The position numbers and the translations under genes were made by a program. From an uncultured virus (IMG/VR IMGVR_UViG_3300046315_000155) (Duplodnaviria > Heunggongvirae > Uroviricota > Caudoviricetes), in the IMG/VR virus record IMGVR_UViG_3300046315_000155: DNA of 64,000 nt, one strand, 5' to 3'. The notes beneath the pieces were generated by a model. The model had not been told where the DNA came from. It saw nothing but the letters and a program-made list of their open reading frames with translations, and did no database searches. Of this stretch, positions 2,176 through 62,583 are shown piece by piece. How positions within the stretch are numbered: the first letter of the stretch is position 1; each line of letters starts with the position of its first letter.

Positions 2176-2463
2176 ATGAATAAATTATACCAGACAAAAT
2201 ATTTCATTATTGCTGTTTTGTCTGGTATAATCGATGGTTGGGTATCACTACAATGAGATCTATAATGTTCAGGAAACAAAAAGAGGATAAAAGAGGATAT
2301 ATTCGAGATGGATATACAGATATTAAGGATTCCTACGATCACTGGAAACTATTAATGTTTAATCCTGCATATGCTAGATCTACTAGAGCATTTTATGCTT
2401 CTTTAGGCTGGTGGCATCACAATGAACAATTTTTAAGATAATGGTTATGGATTTATATAGATT

Positions 2464-3210
2464 ATGATTCACTTTGACATAACACTCAATCTTTATCAAT
2501 TTGATCAACCTCATCATAATATATATAAATCCCATACTGGTGCATTAACATATAATCAATTATTTGTAGATGATAAACTTTATGTACTCAATACAAAGAC
2601 TGGCAAAATTTATACCAATACTGTAGAACTAGATAAAATAAATCTATTAAAACAATATAATTTTTGTGCTGATAATGAAGGTAGATTTAATACAGGTAAA
2701 AATGGTCAAATTGTATATATTCATGAATTAGTATATGAAGTAAAAACTAATCGCAATTATGTAATCAATCATATCGACGGAGATCCTAGTAACAATATAT
2801 TGTCTAATTTGGAATTATGTACTCATTGGTTTAATACAGTGTTAATGAAGAAAAAATCTGGACTATCTATTGGTATAAGATATAATAATAGTGGTACTAG
2901 CTATCTAACAAAAATTGCCATGCCAAGAATACATGGCAAATGTATAAATTTTGGTGCCAAAGAACTTAATTACCTTCAAAATATTCACTATCAGTTCGGC
3001 ACTAAATCAGGTTTAGTTACACCAAAAAGATACCTCAAAGAAACTCCTAATTGGTTGCCAGATCATACTATCCAATTCTCACCAGACCATCAGATAAAAC
3101 TAGACCAATTAATTCAAGCGCATCTAGAAAATCAATCAACTTGGGATATACCTATTGAAGCTTATGTTAATAATATTAAATTACAAGGCTTAAAAAATGA
3201 CTCCATATAA
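2464..3210 (+). CDS. HNH(-AP2-like) endonuclease, repeat family copy 1
   Basis: VINHIDGDPSNN..SNLE HNH motif followed by an AP2-like SGL.IGI..Y...I.MP...INFG segment; at least 9 related copies in the window. Confidence 0.8.
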   Translation: MIHFDITLNLYQFDQPHHNIYKSHTGALTYNQLFVDDKLYVLNTKTGKIYTNTVELDKINLLKQYNFCADNEGRFNTGKNGQIVYIHELVYEVKTNRNYVINHIDGDPSNNILSNLELCTHWFNTVLMKKKSGLSIGIRYNNSGTSYLTKIAMPRIHGKCINFGAKELNYLQNIHYQFGTKSGLVTPKRYLKETPNWLPDHTIQFSPDHQIKLDQLIQAHLENQSTWDIPIEAYVNNIKLQGLKNDSI

Positions 3211-3386
3211 ATGGTCGTTTAGACAAATTATGTTTGGTTGGAGCGACTTTAAATATTCTCTAATTATTTGGAAAAACTTGATGTTCACTCCATATAATAT
3301 TATCACTACCGATAAATTTTTTTTTTATACTACTATGCAATTCTGGTGGTATGATGAACATTTTGATTAATTATTAAATTTAATAA

Positions 3387-3420
3387 AAAGACCTCCTAAA
3401 CTCAATTAGGAGGTCTTTTT
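3387..3420. terminator. bidirectional rho-independent terminator
   Basis: aaagacctcctaa-loop-ttaggaggtctttt; same hairpin family as the HNH-cassette terminators, next to the palindrome at 3371. Confidence 0.75.
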
Positions 3421-3592
3421 GATCTATTCAACTCTTCTTGCTCTCCACTTCTTGTAATGATTTAATTTTCCATTTGCTACATTTGTTAAATTTGCACTTG
3501 CATTCTTACCCAATTCTGGTGTTAATAAACAAAATTGCAATAAATTAGTGATATGGTGTTCTACTCCATTAGGAACGGTAAGTATATATTTT

Positions 3593-10379: not shown

Positions 10380-11078
10380 ATGGCTGAATTTAAAGAAAAA
10401 AAGTATAATTACCTCTACAAGACAACTTTAGAAGGGAGTAACGATTACTACGTCGGCAAGCATTCATCAGATAAAGACCCCACTAAAGATTCATATAAAG
10501 GATCTGGAAATTGGGTGAGATCTATAAAAAATAAAAAATTACTACATAGAACTGAACTTCAATTTTTTAATACAGCTATAGAATTAAAAAAGGCGGAAAA
10601 GTTATTAATTAAAGAAAATATAGGAAAACATGGTTGTAATAATATATCTCATGGAACAGCAGGAAGTCCGCCAGGAACTAATGCCAGAATCCCTAAGTCA
10701 GAAGAACATAGAAAAAAATTATCTGATGCCAGGACGGGAAAATTTTGTGGGGAAGATAATACTTTTTTTGGTAAAACTCATACAGAAGAATCTAAGAAAA
10801 AAATGTCCAATTCTGCAATGGGTAAAATTGGAAGTAATCATAATAGATTTGGAAAAAATCATACAGAAGAATCTAAGAAAAAAATTTCTGATGCAAGAAT
10901 TGGTAAATATAGTGGAGAAAACAATCCAAGAGCAATACTTAATAATATATCAGTAAAGGAAATAAAAATATTATTAAGAGATGGTCATACTTGTGTATAT
11001 ATTGCCAAACTTTATAATATCAGTCAGGGGGCGATATATGGTATTAAATATGGGAGAACATGGGCACATCATTCATAA
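10380..11078 (+). CDS. GIY-YIG homing endonuclease with NUMOD3 repeats and HTH
   Basis: YLYKT...YYVGKHS...YKGSG; repeated FGK.HTEESKKK.S; ends GRTWAH. Confidence 0.85.
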   Translation: MAEFKEKKYNYLYKTTLEGSNDYYVGKHSSDKDPTKDSYKGSGNWVRSIKNKKLLHRTELQFFNTAIELKKAEKLLIKENIGKHGCNNISHGTAGSPPGTNARIPKSEEHRKKLSDARTGKFCGEDNTFFGKTHTEESKKKMSNSAMGKIGSNHNRFGKNHTEESKKKISDARIGKYSGENNPRAILNNISVKEIKILLRDGHTCVYIAKLYNISQGAIYGIKYGRTWAHHS

Positions 11079-11179
11079 CTAATTAATGGTAATTCTTCTA
11101 GTATTTAGAACTAATATATGTTAGAATATAAATAAAGAACACCATTAATTAGTTATGGTAATAAAAGAGATTTATATTT

Positions 11180-12058: not shown

Positions 12059-12770
12059 ATGAGTAGTAATATGATTCACTTTGATTCATTACTAAAATTA
12101 TGGCAGTTCGATCTTCCTCACCATAATGTAAATAATGGTAATTACAAATTAATATATAATCAATTATTTTTACATGACAAATTACATCTACTCAATATTA
12201 AATCTGGTACAATATATACTAATTCTATAGATCTTGATAAAGTAGATATTCTAAAACAATATAATTTTAATCTTGATAGTAGTGGTAGATTTAAGACAAG
12301 AACTGATAGTGCTAATACATATATTCATCAACTAGTATTTGGAGCGAAGACTAATGAAAATTATGTAATTAATCATTTAGATAGTAATGCTAGTAATAAT
12401 ATACGTTCCAATCTAGAACTATTGACTCAATGGTTCAACACAACAATAAAGAAAAAGTTTTCTGGTTTATTTATTGGGTTACAATATACTAATTATGTTG
12501 GTAGCTATGTGACACAAATCAGGATGCCAAAAGTAAATGGAAAAAGTATAAGTTTTGGTTCTAAAAATCTCAATTACCTTCAAAATATTCATTACCAATT
12601 TGCAACCAAATCAGGTTTAGTGTCCCCCAGAAAGATACTTACAAGAAGTACCTAATTGGTTGCCAGATCCTAATATTGTATTCACAGCAGAACATCAAAC
12701 AAAATTAGATCAATTAATTGAAGCACATCTAGAGAATCAAGCAACATGGGGTAAACCTATTCTGCTCTGA
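12059..12770 (+). pseudogene. HNH(-AP2-like) family copy 2, frameshifted near the C-terminus
   Basis: extra base in the C-run near 12625 (gtgtcccccagaaag); family sequence ERYLQEVPNWLPD...WGKPILL continues in another frame to TGA 12770. Confidence 0.8.
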
Positions 12771-12839
12771 GAGAGGTCTAGGATGCCTCACAACGCACGA
12801 AAACTATAATAATGACTACTAGTGTCAGAATATAAAAAT

Positions 12840-12870
12840 AAGCCTTTCTAGAGTCATCTAGAAAGGCTTT
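12840..12870. terminator. bidirectional terminator between HNH copy 2 and gp19
   Basis: aagcctttctaga-gtca-tctagaaaggctt. Confidence 0.75.
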
Positions 12871-12884
12871 ATTAAATTTAATAA

Positions 12885-13535
12885 TTAATTTGTAGTACTT
12901 GGTAGTACCTCGAAGTACTGGTACGCAAAAGTCACACTGTACTGCGAAATTTGGTTATTGAGTTCGTAACCAAGATCCATTCCAGATAAACTGGATACCC
13001 ATGCACCGTATAACCGATAACTTCTCAAAATCTTATCAGTAGCAGAACTAAATGAACTAGCATTTGCTGGTGTTCTCTCTGGAGCAACATTATCTCTACT
13101 CAATAAATGTAATGTAATATCTTGAATATAACTAATTTTGTTTGTACCCGATCCATTAGAATATCCTAATTCTGATACGTTTTCTGTCAACGCATTGATG
13201 CCTCTAGACCATGCCTCAAATCCTTTGCGTAATCTAAATTCACCATCATTAATTACAGTACAGGAAAAATTCTCAAAACTTCTGTCACCAGCTACTTTTA
13301 ATTCTCTTCCTCTAAATGGAACAGGAATTACTCCAATGTCCATACTAGGTATTTGTGCTGATTTAATCAAAAAACTAGCTGCTGTATTTAATGTTGCTGC
13401 TGATGCTGGTTTATCCCCAGTATTTCCTTTTAATGAATCAATTTGGGAGGGGAAGGACAGATCTACTCTGAACAAGTTGCTTCTAAAGCCACCAAGTAGT
13501 AATTGTGTCCGAAAGTCCATTATATTTAATGCCAT
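12885..13535 (-). CDS. gp19: tail tube protein
   Basis: GGFRSNLF.V, VPFRGRELKVAGDRSF, TVIND..F..R..FE.W, VTFAYQYFE. Confidence 0.95.
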   Translation of the reverse strand: MALNIMDFRTQLLLGGFRSNLFRVDLSFPSQIDSLKGNTGDKPASAATLNTAASFLIKSAQIPSMDIGVIPVPFRGRELKVAGDRSFENFSCTVINDGEFRLRKGFEAWSRGINALTENVSELGYSNGSGTNKISYIQDITLHLLSRDNVAPERTPANASSFSSATDKILRSYRLYGAWVSSLSGMDLGYELNNQISQYSVTFAYQYFEVLPSTTN

Positions 13536-18293: not shown

Positions 18294-18698
18294 ATGATCC
18301 ACTTCTGCAAAACATTAAATCTCTATCAGTTCAATCTGCCTAATCATAATGTAGATAATGGAAAATAAAAATTAAAATTAACATATAATCAATTATTTAT
18401 AGACGATCTATAAATAATTGTTAGTGGCGGTAGTTATCTAACAAATATTGCTATGCCAAGAAAAAATAGTAAAGCTATGACTTTTGGTTCTAAATATATA
18501 AATTACTTACAAAACATACATTATCATTTTGCAGTAAAGTCAGGATTAGTTACTCCAGAAAGATACCTCAGAGAAGTTCCTAATTGGCTACCCGATTCTA
18601 CCATACAATGCTCACCAAAACATCAAACAAAATTAGATCAATTAATTGAAGCACATCTAGAGAATCAATCTACTTGGGAGCAGCCAATTATACTCTGA
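18294..18698 (+). pseudogene. HNH family copy 3, internally deleted
   Basis: MIHFCKTLNLYQFNLPNHNV start and C-terminal ERYLREVPNWLPD...WEQPIIL are kept, the HNH core is missing; TGTGTTATAAT promoter at about 18258. Confidence 0.8.
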
Positions 18699-18750: not shown

Positions 18751-19974
18751 TTAAAAGTAATAAATAACTGGCACCTCGTACCCGTACTCATAATAACTGT
18801 CAGTTAACTTAGCATTCCACCACAGATCTCCACCTTCTTCCACAATACCATCTTCTAATTCTTCTCCATTTATCAATAAAGCACCTAATACCGCCATGTC
18901 GTCTTCTATTTCTTGTCTGTGTAATTCCCGAATATCTTTTGCTACGTCTAAATCTGTAAGTTCTTTGAAATACGGCTGGGTAACACACCAAGAAAATAAT
19001 ACGATACAAGCTACTAGATCATCATTACTACCATCATCTGCTGCATAAGAATCCCCTTTTTCTACATATGTTGATAATTCACTAATAATACCAAAATCTT
19101 CTATTAGTAATTTATCATCTTCAATCAAAGATTTCATGTTACTATAACCTAGTCGTTTTGTAGTTTTAGTAATTTGTAATCCAAATTTGCACTTATTACC
19201 GAATCCTTGACCTAGAATTAACCCGTTTCGTCCCACGGTGGCTGTCATAAGTAGGTTGCTATATTCTAGATCGTAATGTAGAATATCTCCTACTTGTGAT
19301 CCAATGCTGTTTAACTCTACAAGAACGTAAGCTTTATTATATTCATTCGCCAATTTCAATATTATGTTGGGGAATACTATTGGTGCAATATTATTGTTTT
19401 TATAAATAGCTGTTATGGTGTATGGTACAGTAGTGATGTCAAACACCATTGCTACTGAATAATCCTTTTCAACACCTTCTGCGGTGTCTGCACAAATCAT
19501 ATATCTATGCGTAGGATTTGGTTTTGCGTAGACAACTATATTGTCATTTCTTTCTATTGGTTCTTTATGGGTTAATGCTGCTAATTTATTGGCATTAAGA
19601 AGGGTGAGCGATGAACCTATGAAGCTACAGTTTTTATTTAATATATCGTTCGCATAATACCAATGATTCTTGCCAGAATTAACAATATCATATAATTCTA
19701 TTTTTTTTCTTATAGTTTTTTTTGTTTTAAGAAAAGTATTATTTACTTTTCCAATTATTTCTATAGTTTTAGTGAGATCTTTAGCTAATATTATACCTTC
19801 TGTGGTGTTTATCGGATGATTAAGTGAGCAAACTAATTTATTGTCGTCTAAGAATTCTAATTCTATATATTTATTTCTATAAATTTTCTGCACTCCCATA
19901 AATTTCTCGAAACCATCTGGTGTTTCTACCAAATTTCCTATATTTTGCTGTAATGACGGAAGTAATTTTAACAT
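18751..19974 (-). CDS. gp17: terminase large subunit piece 3: split-intein C half (aa 1-115) plus C-terminal nuclease domain
   Basis: intein blocks (CSLNHP, LYDIVN, ends ILNKN/C) followed by CSFIGS, DTAEG..DYS, ELNSIG and NDDLVAC gp17 nuclease motifs. Confidence 0.92.
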   Translation of the reverse strand: MLKLLPSLQQNIGNLVETPDGFEKFMGVQKIYRNKYIELEFLDDNKLVCSLNHPINTTEGIILAKDLTKTIEIIGKVNNTFLKTKKTIRKKIELYDIVNSGKNHWYYANDILNKNCSFIGSSLTLLNANKLAALTHKEPIERNDNIVVYAKPNPTHRYMICADTAEGVEKDYSVAMVFDITTVPYTITAIYKNNNIAPIVFPNIILKLANEYNKAYVLVELNSIGSQVGDILHYDLEYSNLLMTATVGRNGLILGQGFGNKCKFGLQITKTTKRLGYSNMKSLIEDDKLLIEDFGIISELSTYVEKGDSYAADDGSNDDLVACIVLFSWCVTQPYFKELTDLDVAKDIRELHRQEIEDDMAVLGALLINGEELEDGIVEEGGDLWWNAKLTDSYYEYGYEVPVIYYF

Positions 19975-20011
19975 GTAAAAACTGAATTTTTATATTGATA
20001 TTTAGATATAC

Positions 20012-20383
20012 TTGACATATCTCACCAATAATGTTATATTATTAGAATACACATCGAGAAAAAATATATTGAACATTATTAATGGCAACTTAGTTAAGTA
20101 CAAAAATAGATCTCAAAGATACTCTGGAATTGTTGAAGATTTAAACGAAAAATATATCAAAATTATTAATATCAGTGTTAATGGTGAATCTGGTATAATA
20201 TTAAAAGATCAAATATTTAAAATTGGTTCGGGACTAAAAGAATATATAGAAGTTGAAAGAATTGACTTAGGGAATTGTGTTGAATTTTATGCGTCGGTTG
20301 CGATAGTTGAAACTGAAAATGAAAAAACCTATTTTCTAAATCGGATGCGTCAGATTGAGATATATTCTATATATTATTATTAA
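20012..20383 (+). CDS. hypothetical protein (start probably TTG 20069)
   Basis: ORF present; the track start overlaps a TTGACA-17-TATATT promoter at 20012-20040. Confidence 0.5.
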   Translation: MTYLTNNVILLEYTSRKNILNIINGNLVKYKNRSQRYSGIVEDLNEKYIKIINISVNGESGIILKDQIFKIGSGLKEYIEVERIDLGNCVEFYASVAIVETENEKTYFLNRMRQIEIYSIYYY

Positions 20384-20385
20384 AA

Positions 20386-21084
20386 ATGATACATTTCTGC
20401 GACAAAATACTCAATTTCTATCAATTCGATCAACCTCACCATAATCTCAATAAACTATATGCAGGTAAACTTACTTACAATCAACTATTTGTAGATGAAA
20501 CGTTACATGTACTGAATACTAAATCTGGTAAAATATATACTAACACAATAGATCTTGATAAAGTAGAATTGTTAAAACTATATAATTGGTATCATAATAG
20601 TGGAGGTAGATTTAGTACAAAAAAAGATGGACAAACTGTAAGAATTCATGAGTTAGTATATGGATATAAAACTAATGCTAATTGGGTAATTAATCATATA
20701 GATGGCGATCCTAGTAATAATAAACGTTCTAATTTAGAAGTAGTTACTCAATGGTTTAACATATTAATACAAAAGAAGTCATCTGGACTCCCTATTGGTG
20801 CAACATATAATAATGGTAGCTATATAACACAAATTGCTATGCCAAGAGTAAATGGTAAACATATAAATTTTTGTTATAAAGATCTCAATTACTTACAAAA
20901 CTTGCATTATCAGTTTGGAGTAAAATCTGGATTAGTCACTCCCGAAAGATACTTACAAGAAGTACCTAATTGGTTGCCAGATCCTAATATTGTATTCACA
21001 GCAGAACATCAATCAAAACTAGAACAACTTATTGAAACGCATCTAGAAAATCAAGCTACTTGGGATAAACCTATTATGCTCTGA
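20386..21084 (+). CDS. HNH(-AP2-like) family copy 4
   Basis: intact 232-aa family member with VINHIDGDPSNNKRSNLE. Confidence 0.82.
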   Translation: MIHFCDKILNFYQFDQPHHNLNKLYAGKLTYNQLFVDETLHVLNTKSGKIYTNTIDLDKVELLKLYNWYHNSGGRFSTKKDGQTVRIHELVYGYKTNANWVINHIDGDPSNNKRSNLEVVTQWFNILIQKKSSGLPIGATYNNGSYITQIAMPRVNGKHINFCYKDLNYLQNLHYQFGVKSGLVTPERYLQEVPNWLPDPNIVFTAEHQSKLEQLIETHLENQATWDKPIML

Positions 21085-21155
21085 GAGGGGTCTAGGATGC
21101 CCCTCTCAGAGCATAAAAATCACAAATATGACTACTAGTATCAAATCATAAAATA

Positions 21156-21185
21156 ATGACCTCCTAATTGATTTTAGGAGGTCAT
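21156..21185. terminator. cassette terminator
   Basis: atgacctcctaa-ttgatt-ttaggaggtcat; related copies at about 46520, 51510, 56997 and 62540. Confidence 0.75.
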
Positions 21186-21249
21186 TATTAAATTTAATAA
21201 TTAAAAACACACCAATAAATATCAGTATAGAATTATTAAATTTAATAAA

Positions 21250-23661
21250 ATGGCTGAGTTTGTACAAGAAAAATATACTAATGATTGGCAAGTACTAACG
21301 CCTACTGGATATAAAGATTTTGCTGGAGTAGGGCAAACTATTAAATATAATGTTTGGAACGTATACACCACCCAATATCATCTATCTTGTGCTGACGATC
21401 ATATTCTAATTAGATTGAATGATAAAGATGAGTATGAAGAAACTAAACTAGTAGATTTAATAGTTGGGGACGAGATATTGGTAATGGATGATGGTGGATA
21501 TTTGTATCCTGATATAATTCTTGCTATTAATGAATCAGATAATATTGAAAATATGTATGATTTATTGAATGTAGAAGATGACCTCTACATCACCAATAAT
21601 ATAGTTTCACATAACTCGACTACGATGATTTGCTATGCCCTCTGGGTCGCACTATTTAAACCTCATCAAAATATTGCAATATTAGCAAACAAAAGAGATC
21701 TATCTATGGAACTATTAGGTAGACTACAAATGGCATATGAAAATTTGCCAATGTGGTTACAACAAGGAGTAATACAATGGAATAAAACACATATCGAACT
21801 TGAAAATGGTTCTCAAATATTAGCCTCATCCACCAGTGCCACCTCTGTTCGCGGGTCTACCTTCAATATCGTATTTTGCGACGAATTCGCATTCGTCCCT
21901 AATGGTATCCAAGAAGAGTTTATGACCTCGGTATATCCTACTATTTCGTCATCTAAAGAATCTAAATTAATTATCACTTCTTGTGTAGTGAAAAATACAT
22001 ATATTCTCACCACTAAAGGTTATACTCGCATCGAAACTTTTATTAAAGATCAATTAGAGAAAAAATCATATCATATCCCACCATATGAATTAGTGGGTAT
22101 GAAGGGAAATAATAAAGGTACTGTTATGTGTAATAACGGTAAATCAAACGTTAGAAAAATATATACTAATTTTACTGAATTGGAGTGTTCGACTACTCAT
22201 AAACTTTATGCCTGTAAGCAAGGCAAATATGGTTGGTTTAGGGCATCTGAGTTGGAACCTAATGATTTTATTGCAGTCAGATATAATACTCAAATATTTG
22301 GTAATTTGGATACATTAGATTCTGAAAAATTCCCAATAGTTACTCCAGAATTTGCTTATTTTTTTGGTATATATGCTGGTAGTGGTTATATAACTGATGG
22401 CAGATTTATTACTCTGACTCTTCGTATTACGGATAGTGGATATTTGGATGAGGATTGTTATGATGATGCCATAAAAAATATTGGACTGGATTATGAGTTT
22501 GATGGGGTTAATTACATTATAGATTCAATTGAACTAGCCAGTGTATTAAAAAAATTGAAGTACACTTCTCCTGATAAGTATACTACTTTTGGAAATGGTC
22601 TAACTGATATTCCCCTTCGGTGGTCTAAAATTAATACTGTTACCTTTCTCCAAGGATGCTTCGATAGTATGGCACTAGTGAATCATCGTAAAAAAAATAA
22701 CAATTATGGTGATATATACATCACTAATACTAATGAAGACCTATTGGAACAAATACACCTATTATTATTGAATATTGGTGTGGTTAATTCTATCAAAAAG
22801 GGGTTATATGAACAACGAAGATATTATTGGCATATGAGAAGAAAAATGAGATACTCTCGTCGCACTTTGCTGAAGATACCAAATTGCTACACCCCAGAAT
22901 TTTTTGAAATAATTAATTTTAAACATCCTCACAAACAACAATGGAATTGCTATCAGACTAATATCAGAAAATTTCGTAAACAGAGTGATTCTATTCCATT
23001 TTTTATTCCATTCATTAAACAACATCTCCCATTAGAAACACAAAAGAAATATATTAAACAATATTTTGCTTTTAATGGGGAGGGACAACACAAATATGTA
23101 CACATGAATCGACAAAATGCTCTTAAAAAATTACCAATCATTCAATCTGTAATTAATAGTAGTGTTAGCGAATTTGTTGAATTGAATGTTAGACCGGATT
23201 TGTTGTGGACTAAAATTCGTCGGATTAATGACGACCACATCGAACAGTTATATGATTTTTCTCTAGATAATGTTCCTAACGATCCTTGGTGTCATTCCGT
23301 TATCTATAATGGATTTGTTGGTGAACAAACCCCCCGTGGGCTAAACTTATTTTATCGTATTTTTGTTGATGCAAAGAATGGTAAGAATGAGTATGTGCCA
23401 GTAGAGATTACATGGGATATGATTCCAGGAAGAGATGCGGAATTTAAACGAATGACCATCGCGAATACGAGTGCTAAACAATTCGAGCAGGAGTTTGAGT
23501 CGCTTTCATCTTGTAGTATTGTTCGTATCATCGATCTAGAGGGGGTTGAGAGAGACATACAATTAGGAGAATTATACAATTTATTAAAAGAACAGAACAT
23601 ATTAGAGCAGAAGCAAGAGTGCATAGATATTGATTCAGAAATAGTACTTGACAAAGAATGA
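21250..23661 (+). CDS. gp17: terminase large subunit piece 2: split-intein C half (aa 1-122), ATPase extein, contiguous intein (aa 245-693), extein, split-intein N half (aa 751-803)
   Basis: IVSHN/STT junction; ILANK, LGRLQMAYENLP.W.QQG, VRG, Walker B VFCDEFAF; ITS/CVV...GEQ/TPRG; EQEFE/SLS. Confidence 0.93.
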   Translation: MAEFVQEKYTNDWQVLTPTGYKDFAGVGQTIKYNVWNVYTTQYHLSCADDHILIRLNDKDEYEETKLVDLIVGDEILVMDDGGYLYPDIILAINESDNIENMYDLLNVEDDLYITNNIVSHNSTTMICYALWVALFKPHQNIAILANKRDLSMELLGRLQMAYENLPMWLQQGVIQWNKTHIELENGSQILASSTSATSVRGSTFNIVFCDEFAFVPNGIQEEFMTSVYPTISSSKESKLIITSCVVKNTYILTTKGYTRIETFIKDQLEKKSYHIPPYELVGMKGNNKGTVMCNNGKSNVRKIYTNFTELECSTTHKLYACKQGKYGWFRASELEPNDFIAVRYNTQIFGNLDTLDSEKFPIVTPEFAYFFGIYAGSGYITDGRFITLTLRITDSGYLDEDCYDDAIKNIGLDYEFDGVNYIIDSIELASVLKKLKYTSPDKYTTFGNGLTDIPLRWSKINTVTFLQGCFDSMALVNHRKKNNNYGDIYITNTNEDLLEQIHLLLLNIGVVNSIKKGLYEQRRYYWHMRRKMRYSRRTLLKIPNCYTPEFFEIINFKHPHKQQWNCYQTNIRKFRKQSDSIPFFIPFIKQHLPLETQKKYIKQYFAFNGEGQHKYVHMNRQNALKKLPIIQSVINSSVSEFVELNVRPDLLWTKIRRINDDHIEQLYDFSLDNVPNDPWCHSVIYNGFVGEQTPRGLNLFYRIFVDAKNGKNEYVPVEITWDMIPGRDAEFKRMTIANTSAKQFEQEFESLSSCSIVRIIDLEGVERDIQLGELYNLLKEQNILEQKQECIDIDSEIVLDKE
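21982..23328 (+). mobile_element. contiguous 449-aa intein with degenerate LAGLIDADG endonuclease, C-terminal Gln
   Basis: C1 block A CVVKNTYI, block B LECSTTHKL, FAYFFGIYAGSG and FLQGCFDSMA helices, block F LYDFSL, ends GFVGEQ/T. Confidence 0.85.
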
Positions 23662-35718: not shown

Positions 35719-35806
35719 TCTATTAAATTTAATAATTCTATAGATATTTATGATTGCGATACATCAATATCTGTGTTATGATGATTATATACTTTATTAT
35801 ATTAAA

Positions 35807-36535
35807 ATGATTTACTACGACACAACGCTGGATTTATGGCAGTTCAATCAACCTCATCATAATGTAGACAATGGTTACAATTTAATATATAATCAATTCT
35901 TTACTTATGACCAACTGTATGTACTCAATACTAATACTGGTATATTATATACTAATTCTATAGATCTTGATAAAGTAGATCTATTAAAACTATATAATTT
36001 TAATCCTAATAATACAGGTAGATTTCTAACATATAAAAATGGACAAACTGTAAAAATTCATGAATTAATAGTTGGATTGAAGACTAATAATAATTGGGTG
36101 ATCAATCATATCGACGGAGATCCTAGTAATAACAAATTATCTAATTTAGAAGTAGTCACTCAATGGTTTAATATAGCATTAATGAAGAAGTCATCTGGAC
36201 TCCCTATTGGTATAAAATGTGCTAATGGTGGTAGTAGTAGCTATAAAACACAAATTCGTATGCCAAGAGTAAATGGTGAGAGAATAAGTTTTGGTTCACA
36301 ATCAATAAATTACCTTCAAAATATTCACTATCAGTTCGGCATCAAATCAGGTTTAGTATTGCCAGAACGATACCTCAAAGAAACTCCTAATTGGTTGCCA
36401 GATCATACTATCCAATTCTCACCAAAACATCAGATAAAACTAGACCAATTAATTGAAGCACATTTAGAAAATCAAGCATCTTGGGAACAACCTATTATGC
36501 TCCCAGAGGGGTCTAGAATGCCCTACACCGCATAG
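35807..36535 (+). CDS. HNH(-AP2-like) family copy 6
   Basis: intact family member; probable ATG 35807; TGTGTTATGAT promoter at about 35773; reads 10 codons into the conserved 3' tail. Confidence 0.82.
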   Translation: MIYYDTTLDLWQFNQPHHNVDNGYNLIYNQFFTYDQLYVLNTNTGILYTNSIDLDKVDLLKLYNFNPNNTGRFLTYKNGQTVKIHELIVGLKTNNNWVINHIDGDPSNNKLSNLEVVTQWFNIALMKKSSGLPIGIKCANGGSSSYKTQIRMPRVNGERISFGSQSINYLQNIHYQFGIKSGLVLPERYLKETPNWLPDHTIQFSPKHQIKLDQLIEAHLENQASWEQPIMLPEGSRMPYTA

Positions 36536-46507: not shown

Positions 46508-46960
46508 TATACAAAAATATGACCTTCTAATTGATTTTTAGAAGGTCATATTTTTATGATTATGACACTAGCACTCGTATTTATAGTTATCGTGCATTGT
46601 GGGGCATTCCAGACCCCTCTTAGAATCTAATAGGCTTATCCCAAGATGCCTGATTTTCTAAATGTGCTTCAATTAATTGGTCTAGTTTATTCTGCTGTTC
46701 TAGTGAGAATTGGATAGTAGAATCGGGCAACCAGTTAGGAGTTTCTTTGAGGTATCGTTCTGGAGACACTAATCCTGATTCTGTACCAAACTGAAAATGA
46801 ATATTCTGGAGGGAATTAAGATCTTTAGAAGTAAAATTTATTTGCTTACCATTTACTCTTGGCATAATAACTTGTGTTTTATAGCTACTGCCATTGGCAT
46901 ATGTTATATTTATCGAAGTTTTGCCATACTAATAATAAACGATATAATCATTATAACATA
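46505..46960 (-). pseudogene. HNH family copy 7, internally deleted, inverted, with promoter, 3' tail and terminator
   Basis: 46620..46865 encodes the family C-terminus; TATGTTATAAT at about 46950-46960 (minus strand); tail and hairpin at 46505-46620. Confidence 0.8.
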
Positions 46961-48518: not shown

Positions 48519-48797
48519 ATGGCAAGAAAAAAAGAACTGGAAAACTCTTTTCAATCGAATCCGCTCCTAAAAAGAATTGGTGTAGACATAGAATTTGATG
48601 AGGATAATGTAAACGAATTTATGAAGTGCAAAAAAGATATAAATTATTTTGCAAATAATTACATCAAAATCGTTACATTGGATAAAGGGTTGACAAATAT
48701 AAAACTTTATAAATATCAGGAAAAATTGCTGAAGACGTTTGACCGCAACCGCTTCGTTGTCGTTAAGTATCCTTTTTTGTCCCCGATTGCCGCATAA
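48519..48797 (+). CDS. gp17: terminase large subunit piece 1a (N-terminus, homology to KYP at 48773)
   Basis: NP.LKR....EF.....EF.KC..D..YFA.NYIKIV.LD.GL....LY.YQEKL...F..NRF...K.P matches the gp17 N-terminus; ATG 48519. Confidence 0.88.
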   Translation: MARKKELENSFQSNPLLKRIGVDIEFDEDNVNEFMKCKKDINYFANNYIKIVTLDKGLTNIKLYKYQEKLLKTFDRNRFVVVKYPFLSPIAA

Positions 48798-48829
48798 TCA
48801 ATAAACTGGTTAGCTAATATTGGGGACAA

Positions 48830-48940
48830 CCTCGTCAAAGCGGGAAATGTGTTACAGGTGACACCGCAATCACCATCAAAAACCGAATTACCGATGAAGT
48901 AAAAATTATAACTATTGCAGAATATTTCAACTCCATATAG
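48830..48940 (+). CDS. gp17: terminase piece 1b: Walker A PRQSGK plus 30-aa split-intein N half, in a different frame and with no start codon
   Basis: hand translation PRQSGK/CVTGDTAITIKNRITDEVKIITIAEYFNSI*; in-frame TAA upstream at 48815. Confidence 0.85.
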   Translation, partial: PRQSGKCVTGDTAITIKNRITDEVKIITIAEYFNSI

Positions 48941-49043: not shown

Positions 49044-49382
49044 ATGTTAAATAGTGTAATATGTGTTAATTGTAATAACTTCTATGACAAATATAATTTA
49101 AGATTTCATGTTAAATCTCATGGATATCAAAATTTATCAGATTATAAAAAATTTCATAATATATATATATATCAAAAGAAATCAAAAGTATGTGAATATT
49201 GCAACAGGGAATTCGTACCAATTAAAAAAAAACAAACTTTGCGCGAATGGTGCATTGCATTTAATCTAAGCTACAATACAATACATTCCAGATATAGACA
49301 AGGTTGGGTAGTCCCTAAATTATTTAGTTCAATAAAAAGGAAAAAAATAGAAATTGGTGAGTTTTTTCGTGATTTATCTTGA
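49044..49382 (+). pseudogene. Zn-finger / endonuclease remnant
   Basis: C..C...H...H and CEYC motifs plus a QTL.EW....N..Y.TI..R...GW tail of phage HNH-type proteins; no nuclease core. Confidence 0.5.
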
Positions 49383-49683: not shown

Positions 49684-50115
49684 ATGATTGAAAAAATAAC
49701 CAAATTAAAAGAAAACTTCGCCACATTTGAACAAACATACGGCAGGTTGATGAGAAATACAGATGAAGATGGATACGAGTTTTGTGCAGAAGGAATTTTA
49801 GGACTTACTGCTGGTCTTGACATCAAAATTCATCCAGAACATAACGTCTCCATGTTTTGTATTAATGGGGTATATCTATATTTGAATATTCCTCATAATA
49901 TCTATGATAATTTAGATTTGCCGTTGCTTATATCTACATCAAAATTAATAGGATGGGGGGAACAATTAAAGTTGACAAAAAAGCAAATTAAGGCTATTAT
50001 GCAGGAAGGCGAACAAATTTGTTGGGCATCTTTGAACGATGGGGTCAGATTAACTTTTTCCCAATTTATTTTACTGCTGGACATTCTGGACAAACTATAT
50101 ATATATCATGATTAA
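49684..50115 (+). CDS. hypothetical protein, tandem paralog 1 of 4
   Basis: shared K...LKENFA..Q...L...CAEG.L...L.LP...L.LT..Q...W..LND...LTF.QF.LLLD. Confidence 0.7.
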   Translation: MIEKITKLKENFATFEQTYGRLMRNTDEDGYEFCAEGILGLTAGLDIKIHPEHNVSMFCINGVYLYLNIPHNIYDNLDLPLLISTSKLIGWGEQLKLTKKQIKAIMQEGEQICWASLNDGVRLTFSQFILLLDILDKLYIYHD

Positions 50116-50515
50116 TAAATTAGAACAATTAAAAGAGAATTTTGCCAAATATGAACAAGGATTTTGTAAATTAGTGACTGGCGAATGCCTGTGTGCAGAG
50201 GCTATTTTGGCTATATCTAATGGTTTAATTATCAAAAAACAATATTCATTTTCTGACGATATGGTTTACGAAGAAGAAAATAGTTGCTATTTTGAGTTTT
50301 CTATACCCAGCTACCATTATACAGAGTTAAATTTACCCAAATATATAACAAAAATTGAACTTCTTTGGTGGGCAAAAAAATTACAACTAACTTCGAGACA
50401 AATAGATATGCTACAAAGTCTTAATTCTCTCATTTCTTGGGCAAATCTAAACGATATTGTCAGATTAACCTTTCCACAATTTATTTTACTGCTGGACATC
50501 CTGAACAAATTATAG
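50108..50515 (+). CDS. hypothetical protein, tandem paralog 2 of 4
   Basis: same family motif. Confidence 0.7.
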   Translation: MINKLEQLKENFAKYEQGFCKLVTGECLCAEAILAISNGLIIKKQYSFSDDMVYEEENSCYFEFSIPSYHYTELNLPKYITKIELLWWAKKLQLTSRQIDMLQSLNSLISWANLNDIVRLTFPQFILLLDILNKL

Positions 50516-50532
50516 ATAGATATATATATATC

Positions 50533-50943
50533 ATGATTAATAAATTAGAACAATTAAAAGAGAATTTCGCCAAATATAATCAATATCACCGAAGATTGGT
50601 GTCTCTTGATGGGTGTTCTCTATGTGCTGAAGGGGTATTAGCAATTACTGTGGGGGGAACAATTGCTAATGTTCCTATGCACAATAATATAAAAATGATA
50701 CTATTGGATGGAGGATACTATTATAGTACTATACCTGGCAGTGTGTATCAACAATTAAATTTACCCAACCCCATTCCTAAAACTTTATTATTAACTCATC
50801 AAAAACAATTAAAATTAACAAAATTTCAAATTGTTAGCATTAATAAAGAATTTGATTCATTTTTTTGGCATGATATTAATGATTATATTAACTTAACCTT
50901 CTCCCAATTTTCTTTGCTGCTAGATTTATTGAATGAACAATAA
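50533..50943 (+). CDS. hypothetical protein, tandem paralog 3 of 4
   Basis: same family motif; start ATG 50533 (MINKLEQLKENF). Confidence 0.7.
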   Translation: MINKLEQLKENFAKYNQYHRRLVSLDGCSLCAEGVLAITVGGTIANVPMHNNIKMILLDGGYYYSTIPGSVYQQLNLPNPIPKTLLLTHQKQLKLTKFQIVSINKEFDSFFWHDINDYINLTFSQFSLLLDLLNEQ

Positions 50944-51012
50944 ATATGCTCCCCCTACTAGTTCTAGAGTGTCCCTCAAGTCACATAAACTAATTTTTTT
51001 GAGTAAATTATC

Positions 51013-51437
51013 ATGATTAACAAATTACAAGAACTGAAAGACAACTTCGCAAAATATAAACAAGGGTTTTGTAGTTTGGTTGATAAAAATGATCAAACTT
51101 GCCTATGTGCAGAGGGAATACTAGGAATTACTACTGGGTATTCTATTAAGAAGAATGAGGACAATGGAATGAATTCTTTGTATTTTAAATGGAGATATTA
51201 TTATAATAATATCTCTGATAAGGCATATACAGAATTAAACTTGCCAGAATTTATATCTGGTGAGTTTTTATTAAAATATCAAACAGAATTAGAATTGACT
51301 AAAAAACAAGTGAAGTGAAGTGGATTAGTGACCCCAAAAAAAGACATAGTTGGTTTATTTTAAATGATATGTTGAAATTATCATTCCATCAATTTTGTCT
51401 ATTGTTAGATATCTTAAACACATCATACATACACTGA
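51013..51437 (+). pseudogene. tandem paralog 4 of 4, frameshifted by a 5-nt duplication
   Basis: gtgaagtgaagtgg at about 51310; removing one tgaag restores ...WFILNDMLKLSFHQFCLLLDIL... Confidence 0.7.
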
Positions 51438-59370: not shown

Positions 59371-60075
59371 ATGATACATTTCTGCAAAATACTCAATTTC
59401 TATCAGTTCGTTCAGCCTCATCATAATATAAATAATGGATCTTGTAAGCCATTAACATATAATCAATTATTTGTAGACGATCTACTACATCTGCTCAATA
59501 CTAATACTGGTAAATTATATACTAATTCTATCGATCTTGATAAAGTAGATCTTCTTAAACTATATAATTGGTGTCCTGACAATAAAGGTAGATTTCTAAC
59601 ATATAAAAATGGACAAACTGTAAAAATTCATGAATCTGTATATGGTGCAAAGACTAATAAGAATTGGGTGATCAATCATATAAATGGCGATCCTAGTAAT
59701 AATACAAGATCTAATTTAGAATTAGTCACTAATTGGTTCAACACCGCAATAATGAAGAAGTCATCTGGACTTCCTATTGGTATACTGTATCATCATGGTG
59801 ATAGTAGCTATCAAACACAAATTGCTATGCCAAGAGTAAAGAAACAAATAAATTTTGGTTCTGAAGATCTTAACTATCTTCAAAACTTGCACTACCAATT
59901 TGCTATTAAATCAGGTTTAGTATTGCCAGAAAGATATCTATTATCAGTCCCAAACTGGCTACCAGATCATACTATCCTATTCACTCCAGAACATCAATCA
60001 AAACTAGATAAATTAATTGAAGCACATCTAGCTAATCAAGCAACTTGGGAACAACCTACTCCACTCACTCACTAA
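59371..60075 (+). CDS. HNH(-AP2-like) family copy 8
   Basis: intact family member; ATG 59371. Confidence 0.82.
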   Translation: MIHFCKILNFYQFVQPHHNINNGSCKPLTYNQLFVDDLLHLLNTNTGKLYTNSIDLDKVDLLKLYNWCPDNKGRFLTYKNGQTVKIHESVYGAKTNKNWVINHINGDPSNNTRSNLELVTNWFNTAIMKKSSGLPIGILYHHGDSSYQTQIAMPRVKKQINFGSEDLNYLQNLHYQFAIKSGLVLPERYLLSVPNWLPDHTILFTPEHQSKLDKLIEAHLANQATWEQPTPLTH

Positions 60076-60564: not shown

Positions 60565-61259
60565 TTCATTATACCAACACTACTAATAAATGGGAATTCG
60601 ATCTACCTCATCATAATGTAAATAAAAGTAATTATAAATTAATTTTTAATCAATTGTTTGTAGATGAAACTTTACATGTACTCAATACTAATACTGGTAG
60701 ATTATATACTAATACTATCGATCTTGATAAAGTAGATCTATTAAAACTATATAATTGGTGTCCGGATTGTGAAGGCAGATTTAGTACAAAGAAAAATGGA
60801 AAAAATGTAAAAATTTATGAATTAATAGTTGGATTGAAGACTAATCAAAATTGGGTGATCAATCATATAGATGGCGATCCTAGTAATAATACAAGATCTA
60901 ATTTAGAATTAGTGACAAATTGGTTCAATATAGCATTAATGAAAAAGTCATCGGGACTTCCTATAGGTATAAAATATAATCGTGGTGGTACTAGCTATCA
61001 AACAATAATCCGTATGCCAAGAATACATGACAAATTTATAAATTTTGGTTCAAAAGATCAGAATTGCCTTCAAAACATTCATTATCAGTTTGCCACTAAA
61101 TCAGGGGTAGTATCTCCCGAACGATACCTCAAAGAAGTACCTAATTGGTTGCCTGATTCTACTATACAATTTACTCCAGAACATCAATCAAAACTAAACC
61201 AATTGATCGAAGCACATCTAGAGAATCAACTTACTTGGGATGCCCCGATTATGTTCTGA
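60561..61259 (+). CDS. HNH(-AP2-like) family copy 9
   Basis: intact family member; ATG 60561. Confidence 0.82.
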   Translation: MIHYTNTTNKWEFDLPHHNVNKSNYKLIFNQLFVDETLHVLNTNTGRLYTNTIDLDKVDLLKLYNWCPDCEGRFSTKKNGKNVKIYELIVGLKTNQNWVINHIDGDPSNNTRSNLELVTNWFNIALMKKSSGLPIGIKYNRGGTSYQTIIRMPRIHDKFINFGSKDQNCLQNIHYQFATKSGVVSPERYLKEVPNWLPDSTIQFTPEHQSKLNQLIEAHLENQLTWDAPIMF

Positions 61260-61312
61260 GATGCCCATAGAATGCCTTACTACACCACTTACATATTCTC
61301 ACCAAATTAACT

Positions 61313-62459: not shown

Positions 62460-62583
62460 ATGCTCTCAGACCCCTCTAGGATGCCCTACAACGAATGATA
62501 ATCTAAATAATGACTACTAGTACCAAATTATAAAAATAATGACCTTCTAATTGATTTTAGAAGGTCATTATTAAATTTAATAA
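62460..62583 (+). repeat. stand-alone copy of the HNH-cassette 3' tail, terminator and palindrome
   Basis: atgctctcaga...ctaggatgccctacaacg...atgactactagtaccaaa...gaccttctaattgattttagaaggtcattattaaatttaataa; similar stand-alone copies at 15821-15936, 51432-51554 and 56918-57042. Confidence 0.8.

Follow-up and report, generated by a model that had tools for sequence, protein, structure and literature searches.

Within the literature cited here, efficient long-distance bypass in bacterial-type translation is established for one lineage, consisting of T4 gene 60, in which 50 nucleotides (nt) are bypassed, and its homologues in myovirus topoisomerase genes (10.1101/2022.08.31.505936; Atkins et al. 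2016, PMC5009743). The DNA described here is a 64,000-nt stretch (the window) of an uncultured freshwater myovirus-like phage, IMG/VR record IMGVR_UViG_3300046315_000155, with 31% GC content. It carries 59 nt of surplus, hairpin-forming sequence in the first of three genes that jointly encode the large terminase (TerL). The best explanation for the 59 nt is an inserted coding gap. There is about an even chance that ribosomes pass this gap by a programmed bypass between matched proline codons.

As far as the cited work goes, the rules of bypass (a hungry A-site codon, a take-off stem, and a nascent peptide) derive from the gene-60 lineage alone. In gene 60, the take-off stem contains the take-off codon and is followed by an unstructured, AU-rich 3′ half, and gene-60 cassettes carry GAG, GGG, GGA, or AGG 5–7 nt 5′ of the landing codon (Manning and Atkins, 10.1101/2022.08.31.505936). 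The tRNA leaves the 5′ third of the gene-60 gap unscanned (10.1101/2024.12.09.627546). At all established efficient bypass sites covered by these sources, the A-site codon is a stop codon, a rare codon, or an unused one (including 10.1101/2022.08.31.505936). Two other systems are relevant. The TerL of Streptomyces phage phiHau3 contains a candidate UUA-triggered 10-nt bypass, with a junction peptide detected by mass spectrometry in Escherichia coli (Antonov et al. 2023, PMC10732093). The mitochondrial "byps" of Magnusiomyces capitatus occupy 81 positions and combine an unused A-site codon with relaxed mitochondrial decoding (PMC5009743).

Atypical split inteins of TerL, including a Lake Gatun gp17-like terminase with a 122-residue C-terminal intein segment (IntC), were described by Dassa et al. 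2009 (PMC2677866). The same work describes "fractured genes" with free-standing endonuclease genes, and the parts of it used here treat bypassing only as an improbable substitute for split inteins. The type was later studied as AceL-TerL, GOS-TerL, and consensus Cat-TerL, and trans-splicing is active in vitro according to the later source (PMC11766414). Titles and abstracts found for translational bypassing or coding gaps together with terminase describe no hairpin gap of ~50–60 nt at the TerL Walker A motif.

The interrupted terminase gene

The first terminase gene begins with an 85-codon open reading frame (ORF) at 48519..48773 on the plus strand, from ATG to the CCT codon of Pro85 (48771-73). 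This ORF, the N-extein, was assigned by translation and tblastn. It is 50.6% identical to amino acids (aa) 1–79 of the TerL of Synechococcus phage S-SKS1 and corresponds to a T4-type large terminase N-terminus. Frame 0 reads ...RNRFVVVKYP up to this CCT and continues with the non-homologous FLSPIAA to a TAA (48795..48797, plus strand), which closes the un-bypassed product at 92 aa (...KYPFLSPIAA). TerL homology picks up in another frame at a second CCT (48830..48832, plus strand), which is followed by CGT CAA AGC GGG AAA (PRQSGK), then CVTGDTAITIKNRITDEVKIITIAEYFNSI and a stop codon at 48938-40. RQSGK (48833..48844, plus strand) starts the Walker A motif, ends the N-extein, and fits the PRQ[ST]GK of homologues.

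The non-coding gap between the two CCT codons (48774..48829, plus strand) is 56 nt long, or 59 nt including one CCT, and consists of TTT and a 53-nt hairpin (48777-48829). Homologues carry exactly one Pro at this place (S-SKS1 TerL, NICKMPRQTGKS), so the 59 nt are surplus. A gap-free KMPRQ[ST]GK is present in 77 of 80 related IMG/VR loci (closest kept, ≤59% identity), and a cis intein directly follows GK in 4 of the 77. A preliminary description, made from the letters of the window alone, had placed the homology break at CCT 48771 and the resumption at CCT 48830 in a different frame, with both flanks intact. All of these coordinates were confirmed.

The hairpin has an 11-bp outer stem (48777-87 with 48819-29, one G-U pair) and an inner stem (48792-48800 with 48807-14), and the frame-0 TAA lies within the latter. 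Folded alone, the 59 nt reach −23.1 kcal/mol (z = −5.46), and none of 200 shuffles is as stable. The hairpin is retained when 211 nt are folded. Compared with 65-nt segments across the 64 kb (mean −7.7, standard deviation 4.0), it lies ~3.9 standard deviations below the mean and ranks ~29th among non-overlapping segments of both strands. Both stems had been proposed in the preliminary description and were reproduced by folding. The GGGGA reported 3 nt before the second CCT is also present (48822..48826, plus strand) as a possible mini Shine-Dalgarno sequence and lies within the 3′ arm of the stem.

Stop codons close all three frames within the gap. Besides the frame-0 TAA, the landing frame contains a TAA at 48815..48817 (plus strand), which blocks −1 rescue at the T-run, and the third frame has stops at ~48802 and ~48811. 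Neither a single nor a double frameshift can therefore join the N-extein to the PRQSGK part, and the earlier statement that a −1 slip could not rescue translation holds. A slippery heptamer, U UUU UUG (48773-79), lies directly 5′ of the hairpin and would suit frameshifting, or termination with reinitiation, that yields two polypeptides or an insert-containing protein that is still functional. However, the −1 frame ends at TAA 48815 and never reaches the downstream domain, and the +1 frame ends at ~48802. Between 48818 and the stop codon of the downstream N-terminal intein segment (IntN), the landing frame offers no start codon (ATG, GTG, or TTG). Neither a 19-aa insert in the P-loop nor a TerL without its first 85 residues has a counterpart in 150 family representatives. 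This explanation is considered extremely improbable.

The gap is real DNA and not an assembly artefact, a possibility that the preliminary description had raised. Contigs from three IMG/VR metagenome assemblies match the window at 100% identity across 5.3–6.3 kb including the gap. One of the three contigs, G001, equals window positions 15203-64000 without mismatch, and the three represent one population and not independent evolution. In three of four runs (X16, X18, and X23), Logan contigs reproduce the gap without a single difference. They span its 5′ junction, with >31 letters to either side; past the 3′ junction, they continue for only 28, 18, and 1 letters. The fourth run (X13) has only short, unlike pieces at the locus. 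The identical truncated ORF is recorded on 12 contigs, the longest of 156,966 nt, and the stretch or part of it is present in 24 of the 24 freshwater runs listed. A 390-nt contig from another organism (runs X13 and X16; depth 23.5) matches 48767-48801 with 5 differences and then continues with unlike sequence; this match is probably due to chance.

The rest of the terminase is fractured but intact. TerL is encoded by three genes on both strands, 25–30 kb apart (window 18751-23661 and 48519-48940), that contain two atypical split inteins, each with a short IntN and a long IntC, and one cis intein with LAGLIDADG. The first IntN (48845..48940 including the stop codon, plus strand) encodes 30 aa (CVTGDT...FNSI). 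Like the short IntN (25–37 aa) of this intein type, it starts with the Cys directly after the Walker A GK (48845-48937 without the stop codon) and is encoded on a gene of its own. Fragment B (21250..23661, plus strand, 803 aa) comprises an IntC of ~122 aa (...VSHN|STT), extein 2, the cis intein, extein 3, and the second short IntN. Its IntC resembles the long IntC (about 104–122 aa) of solved members, with HN followed by Ser, Thr, or Cys at +1. Residues 10–122 of fragment B match PDB 6dsl_B, "Consensus engineered intein CatC" (E 3.5e-8). Fragment C (18751..19974, minus strand, 407 aa) comprises the second IntC (~116 aa, ...ILNKN|CSF) and the nuclease-domain C-extein with a Terminase_6C match. 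Fragments B and C were found by tblastn and are intact ORFs with Terminase_6N, Terminase_6C, intein, and LAGLIDADG matches. The last residue of the cis intein is apparently Gln instead of Asn (...GFVGEQ|T).

The same arrangement of N-extein, GK|C, and short IntN is uninterrupted in 20 of the best 150 of 1,461 family representatives drawn from a library of 1.84 billion proteins; these are 38–49% identical to the window counterpart. Apart from the gap, no lesion was seen in the N-extein, IntN, IntC, or the two other fragments, which agrees with the intact flanks noted before. The known genome that could be searched is 124,517 nt (window plus G001), and the full genome is at least 157 kb. No second TerL N-terminus was found in the 124,517 nt, where only one is present, so the alternative gp17 N-terminus considered in the preliminary description did not appear there. 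Since the only IntN able to pair with fragment B sits behind the gap, an active terminase would need the gap to be skipped.

Gapped and gap-free relatives

At the protein level, three relatives have N-terminal ORFs that break off at the same place as the window ORF. P0004 (94 aa, 79% aa identity) ends in ...FTVVKYPRQ|FSSLVPA*, P0005 (92 aa, 64–69%) in ...FTVVKFPRQ|CVPLTNV*, and P0006 (94 aa, 58–59%) in ...FTVCKFP|FLPLVAA*. Each has seven tail codons and then a stop at the position homologous to 48795. Compared codon by codon with the first 21 nt of the gap, the tails lie within 3 nt for P0006, 4 nt for P0004, and 8 nt for P0005. The average for 20,000 random 7-mers from the window is 11.9 nt, and the chance of so small a distance is 5e-5 for P0006 and 5e-4 for P0004. 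The tails of these two are clearly homologous to the start of the window gap, so at least P0006 and P0004 carry a homologous insert. P0004 and P0005 have two extra coding codons (RQ) ahead of the tail, which implies either a Gln take-off two codons downstream or an insert with a longer flanking duplication. The window N-extein is closest to that of P0004, and the RQ state is out of step with N-extein similarities; its distribution may reflect recurrent insertion, recombination, or recurrent small deletions.

A gap-free allele, P0156 (123 aa, 2 contigs), falls in the 90% cluster of P0006 and is identical to it at 80 of 87 positions (92%) up to the Pro codon. Past this Pro, P0156 has RQSGK|CVIGSTKIKIKNKQTGEIKKISISDLYELCA and reads through as ...VVKFPRQSGKC. 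Its downstream part is identical to the landing-frame peptide of the window at 19 of 33 positions. Its closeness to P0006 shows the gap to be an insertion, gained or exactly lost within ~8% protein divergence. P0156 thereby shows what a hop would produce.

The preliminary description had offered, as an alternative, an insertion resembling a miniature inverted-repeat transposable element (MITE) that kills the gene. Insertion is supported by the gap-free allele; a MITE-like origin and the death of the gene are not. The element is single copy in the 124,517 nt. A scan of IMG/VR for the pattern of the arms gave at least 120 matches, and among the 80 examined only the same phage matches beyond the arms. 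A Y1_Tnp transposase was not found in G001, so neither the multiple copies nor the cognate transposase expected of MITE or IS200/IS605 elements is seen, and no repeat family is apparent.

Gene death itself is unlikely. A selfish or accidental insertion could have inactivated the N-terminal fragment, so that the phage is defective, takes its terminase from an unseen part of the genome or from a helper, or relies on rare, spontaneous, unprogrammed hops. This fits the insertion status of the gap and its lack of a hungry codon or a dedicated nascent-peptide signal. Homing endonuclease genes and inteins also abound in the genome, which makes DNA breaks and repair scars plausible at the site, and the 124.5 kb searched belongs to a genome of at least 157 kb. 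However, all assemblies and runs examined show one identical, fixed gap, with the stretch or part of it in all 24 runs listed, the N-extein, IntN, IntC, and two other fragments carry no further lesion, and the 124.5 kb holds no second N-terminus. Four gap-bearing lineages, down to 58% identity, also keep open N-exteins of 83–87 codons with family-typical conservation. Among these four, 40 of 83 columns are invariant. In 92 gap-free TerLs, the invariant columns score 1.35 bits and the differing columns 2.44 bits (Mann-Whitney p = 1.4e-6, Spearman 0.53). This pattern gives moderate support to continued function of the interrupted gene. With fragments B and C intact, a CatC-like IntC, a sole N-terminus, and a phage widespread in the runs, it is most likely that the gene must work.

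A working gene could also be supplied by precise deletion at the DNA level, if slippage between the CCT repeats in part of the replicating genomes provided a functional template. A hairpin between direct repeats is a classic substrate for slippage deletion, and evolution has produced an exact loss or an exact gain, as the gap-free allele shows. However, no joined, gap-less form was found in the Logan contigs of four runs, although contigs cannot show rare variants, which assembly drops. With a 3-nt repeat, and with 31 nt enclosed by an 11-bp stem, the gap would be a poor slippage substrate, and no Y1 transposase was found in G001. A gene-restoring deletion should also have swept through the population, in which the gap is nevertheless fixed. 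This route is very unlikely.

Searches for the DNA of these four relatives covered several collections. In IMG/VR, with the N-extein, P0006, and a four-sequence alignment as queries, none of P0004, P0005, P0006, or P0156 was among the matches listed. A degenerate-motif scan of IMG/VR viral contigs gave 12 matches, 0 of them in TerL. Metagenome contigs gave 11 loci among the matches listed, all ≤47% identical, and genome contigs gave 4 loci at ≤55% identity. A tblastn search of GenBank phages gave 2,273 records, all <60% identical. A 40-aa landing-frame query had no match among proteins of near or greater length. Short unrelated tails also terminate other TerL N-terminal ORFs among public proteins (P0099, P0120, P0012, P0017, and P0026), inside Walker A or just ahead of it (RQS|..., NRFTI|...); these truncations may represent further coding gaps, introns, or plain sequencing errors.

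Proposed passage of the gap

A programmed 59-nt translational bypass between the matched Pro codons is given about even odds. Ribosomes would translate up to CCU 48771-73 (Pro85), where the peptidyl-tRNA(Pro) would release its codon and remain in the P site. The mRNA would move by 59 nt, and the tRNA would re-pair at the matched CCU 48830-32, the proposed landing codon. Decoding would restart at CGU 48833 and give ...VVKYPRQSGK followed by IntN. The 30-aa IntN would then join the ~122-aa IntC of fragment B, and trans-splicing would form the Walker A loop (GK|ST). Ribosomes that do not hop would finish at TAA 48795 and release the 92-aa product as a dead-end peptide. Because such ribosomes end there, the gap is proposed also to throttle TerL output. 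We infer that skipping occurs on the ribosome rather than at the RNA or DNA level, with these take-off and landing codons and this throttle.

Several features of the gap suit a bypass. Matched CCT codons flank it, and the landing CCT is the only CCN triplet within the last 38 nt before the resume codon; other CCN triplets are confined to the 5′ third of the gap. GGG (48822-24) lies 5 nt 5′ of the landing codon, within the spacing of gene-60 cassettes, and is base-paired in the stem; a role as a mini Shine-Dalgarno sequence would depend on the anti-Shine-Dalgarno sequence of the host. When CCU occupies the P site, positions +11 to +14 hold the four C-G pairs of the stem, close to where the ribosome must unwind mRNA, and a pause there is plausible. 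Bypass also has precedents in phage genes, among them the phiHau3 terminase. No tRNA gene turned up in either the window or G001, so the phage has no tRNA-Pro there. According to the preliminary description, either ribosomes hop or the 59 nt must be excised exactly. Of its proposals, this is the best supported, by a gap fixed in an abundant phage population, the intact TerL system, the sole N-terminus, and the three relatives, all of which are indirect support.

Other observations weigh against a programmed bypass. The A-site codon after take-off is TTT, which is common in this genome (30.2 per 1,000 codons across 73 long ORFs). Frame 0 meets its first stop 7 codons past take-off and not directly after it, a departure from gene 60 that the preliminary description had pointed out correctly. 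The stem begins 3 nt past the take-off codon (48777) and closes at 48829, directly before the landing codon; it excludes the take-off codon and occupies nearly the entire gap, and its pairing buries the putative mini Shine-Dalgarno sequence. The peptide upstream of the gap (...KLYKYQEKLLKTFDRNRFVVVKYP) is ordinary conserved TerL sequence with no added nascent-peptide extension. Folds of the flanks gave no significant stem-loop comparable to the gene-60 5′ stem-loop or a forward-slippage barrier (z −0.85 and −1.26). Among relatives, the homology of the P0005 tail is marginal (P = 0.067). With a gap-free allele at 92% identity to P0006, a recent spread or loss of the insert is conceivable. The selection test is weighed as moderate only, because P0156 suggests a mobile insert and divergence may partly predate the insertions. 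None of the 24 runs listed with the stretch is an RNA run.

Removal of the 59 nt from the RNA was considered beside the bypass. A nuclease of the host or the phage would release the hairpin by cutting at its base, and an RNA ligase would seal the ends; alternatively, a small ribozyme of unknown type would act. Either would leave a continuous message. The stem sets both junctions side by side, and the 3-nt repeat permits exact excision in four equivalent registers. An RNA_ligase-family protein is encoded (PF09414, E 7.4e-13, G001:C1:16891-17421, locus L304, ORF of 283 aa). RNA ligases are common in T4-like phages, so the presence of one is unspecific. No RtcB was found, and the fold lacks bulge-helix-bulge geometry. 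Rfam gave no relevant match in the gap or its surroundings at E up to 10. We know of no precedent for nuclease-plus-ligase splicing of mRNA in bacteria. Removal at the RNA level is therefore regarded as quite unlikely.

The micro-intron suggested in the preliminary description fares no better. At 59 nt, the gap is much smaller than any known self-splicing class, group I and group II introns included. The four excision registers end in A, C, C, and T; because none ends in G, there is no group I omega-G. The combination that marks a group I intron, with U before the 5′ site, a terminal G, and a catalytic core, was not found.

A broader wording of the bypass was also considered and is less likely than not. 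A mobile ~56-nt hairpin "hop element" would constitute a second, mechanistically distinct class of long-range programmed hopping in bacteria-type translation. It would insert with a 3-nt duplication into the Walker A stretch of split-intein terminase genes, at slightly differing codons in each lineage, and could be lost again. It would be skipped without a stop or hungry codon as the closed hairpin sets the landing codon beside the take-off site. Such an element may persist by throttling a toxic enzyme or by destroying a homing-endonuclease target.

Genome neighbourhood and known systems

Homing endonuclease genes are abundant in this genome. An HNH homing-endonuclease gene (20386..21084, plus strand, HNH_3) lies between fragments C and B and belongs to a multi-copy family. 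Members are ~650–750 nt long with 77–83% nt identity and are found at 2461-3156, 12107-12888, 20370-21086, 35769-36502, 59416-60058, and 60590-61261; there are at least 6 copies in the window and further copies in G001. Stand-alone short ORFs resembling the HNH_3 C-terminal domain lie beside TerL fragments at 18453-18698 (plus strand) and 46620-46865 (minus strand). An ORF at 10380-11078 has repeated NUMOD-like motifs and, by eye only, the look of a GIY-YIG-type endonuclease. The ORF that follows IntN (49044-49382) has only a sub-threshold zinc-finger match, and the HNH genes lie elsewhere.

Further downstream, 49684-51437 encodes four tandem paralogues of ~135–168 aa (MI.KL..LKENFA...), of which one was tested and gave no Pfam match. 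In the last paralogue, the frame changes near 51315, which leaves two ORFs (51013-51318 and 51315-51437). A perfect intergenic palindrome with 16–18 nt per arm, of the type AATAATGACCTCCTAA / TTAGGAGGTCATTATT, recurs at 3374-3431, 21152-21189, 46513-46555, and 62535-62572 and may be a shared terminator or regulatory hairpin. Candidates for other coding gaps in the window came from ORF-junction and hairpin scans, which were not exhaustive. The one candidate checked, a hairpin at 11074-11157 (84 nt, 17-nt perfect arms), was rejected as a coding gap; it is intergenic and lies behind the ORF with NUMOD-like motifs and ahead of a phosphoesterase-like gene.

If the bypass is true, a 59-nt gap in another essential phage gene without two of the gene-60 signals would test which of the rules are general, and it would provide a compact new recoding element for reporter work. 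Three selfish layers in one gene (homing endonucleases, split and cis inteins, and the coding gap) could still leave a working enzyme if the gap is skipped. Gene callers will systematically mark such terminases as broken.

Among terminases, the window shares with AceL-TerL, GOS-TerL, and Cat-TerL a 30-aa IntN after the Walker A GK, a ~122-aa CatC-like IntC, and nearby free-standing endonuclease genes. As far as the two sources on that type go (PMC2677866, PMC11766414), neither reports a coding gap in the N-extein. The phiHau3 candidate is likewise a large terminase interrupted by a frame-shifting gap, with a proposed hop and secondary structure that draws the landing codon near. It differs in having 10-nt gaps with a stalling rare UUA, a high-GC host, and a regulatory rationale, whereas the window gap has 59 nt, no rare codon, and a position at the Walker A motif of a split-intein fragment. 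Mitochondrial byps are also short frame-breaking inserts corrected in translation, and they are selfish inserts made harmless. Unlike byps, the window gap is single copy, belongs to a bacterial-type system, and has a common A-site codon.

Gene 60 is the closest counterpart. In both cases, a gap of ~50–60 nt interrupts an essential phage gene that is itself split, and take-off and landing codons match. Both gaps open with a stable stem-loop, carry stops in every frame, have an AU-rich interior, and place a G-rich triplet 5 nt before the landing codon. Both occur in homing-endonuclease-rich genomes with presence or absence among close relatives, and in both the junction appears to shift by up to two codons between relatives. 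By contrast, the window gap is in terL and not in a topoisomerase gene, and it uses Pro codons instead of Gly or Asp codons. No sequence similarity between the two was seen, although no search aimed at it was made. No stop or rare codon follows take-off (UUU, 30.2 per 1,000), the stem takes up 53 of the 56 gap nt without including the take-off codon, and there is no N-terminal extension for a nascent-peptide signal. No MobA-type gene adjoins the window gap, so the cassette arrangement of gene 60 is absent. Because two tested defining features are lacking, the window gap is not placed in the gene-60 family. The bypass proposed here would be similar to that of gene 60 in action, by analogy and not as a member of its family.

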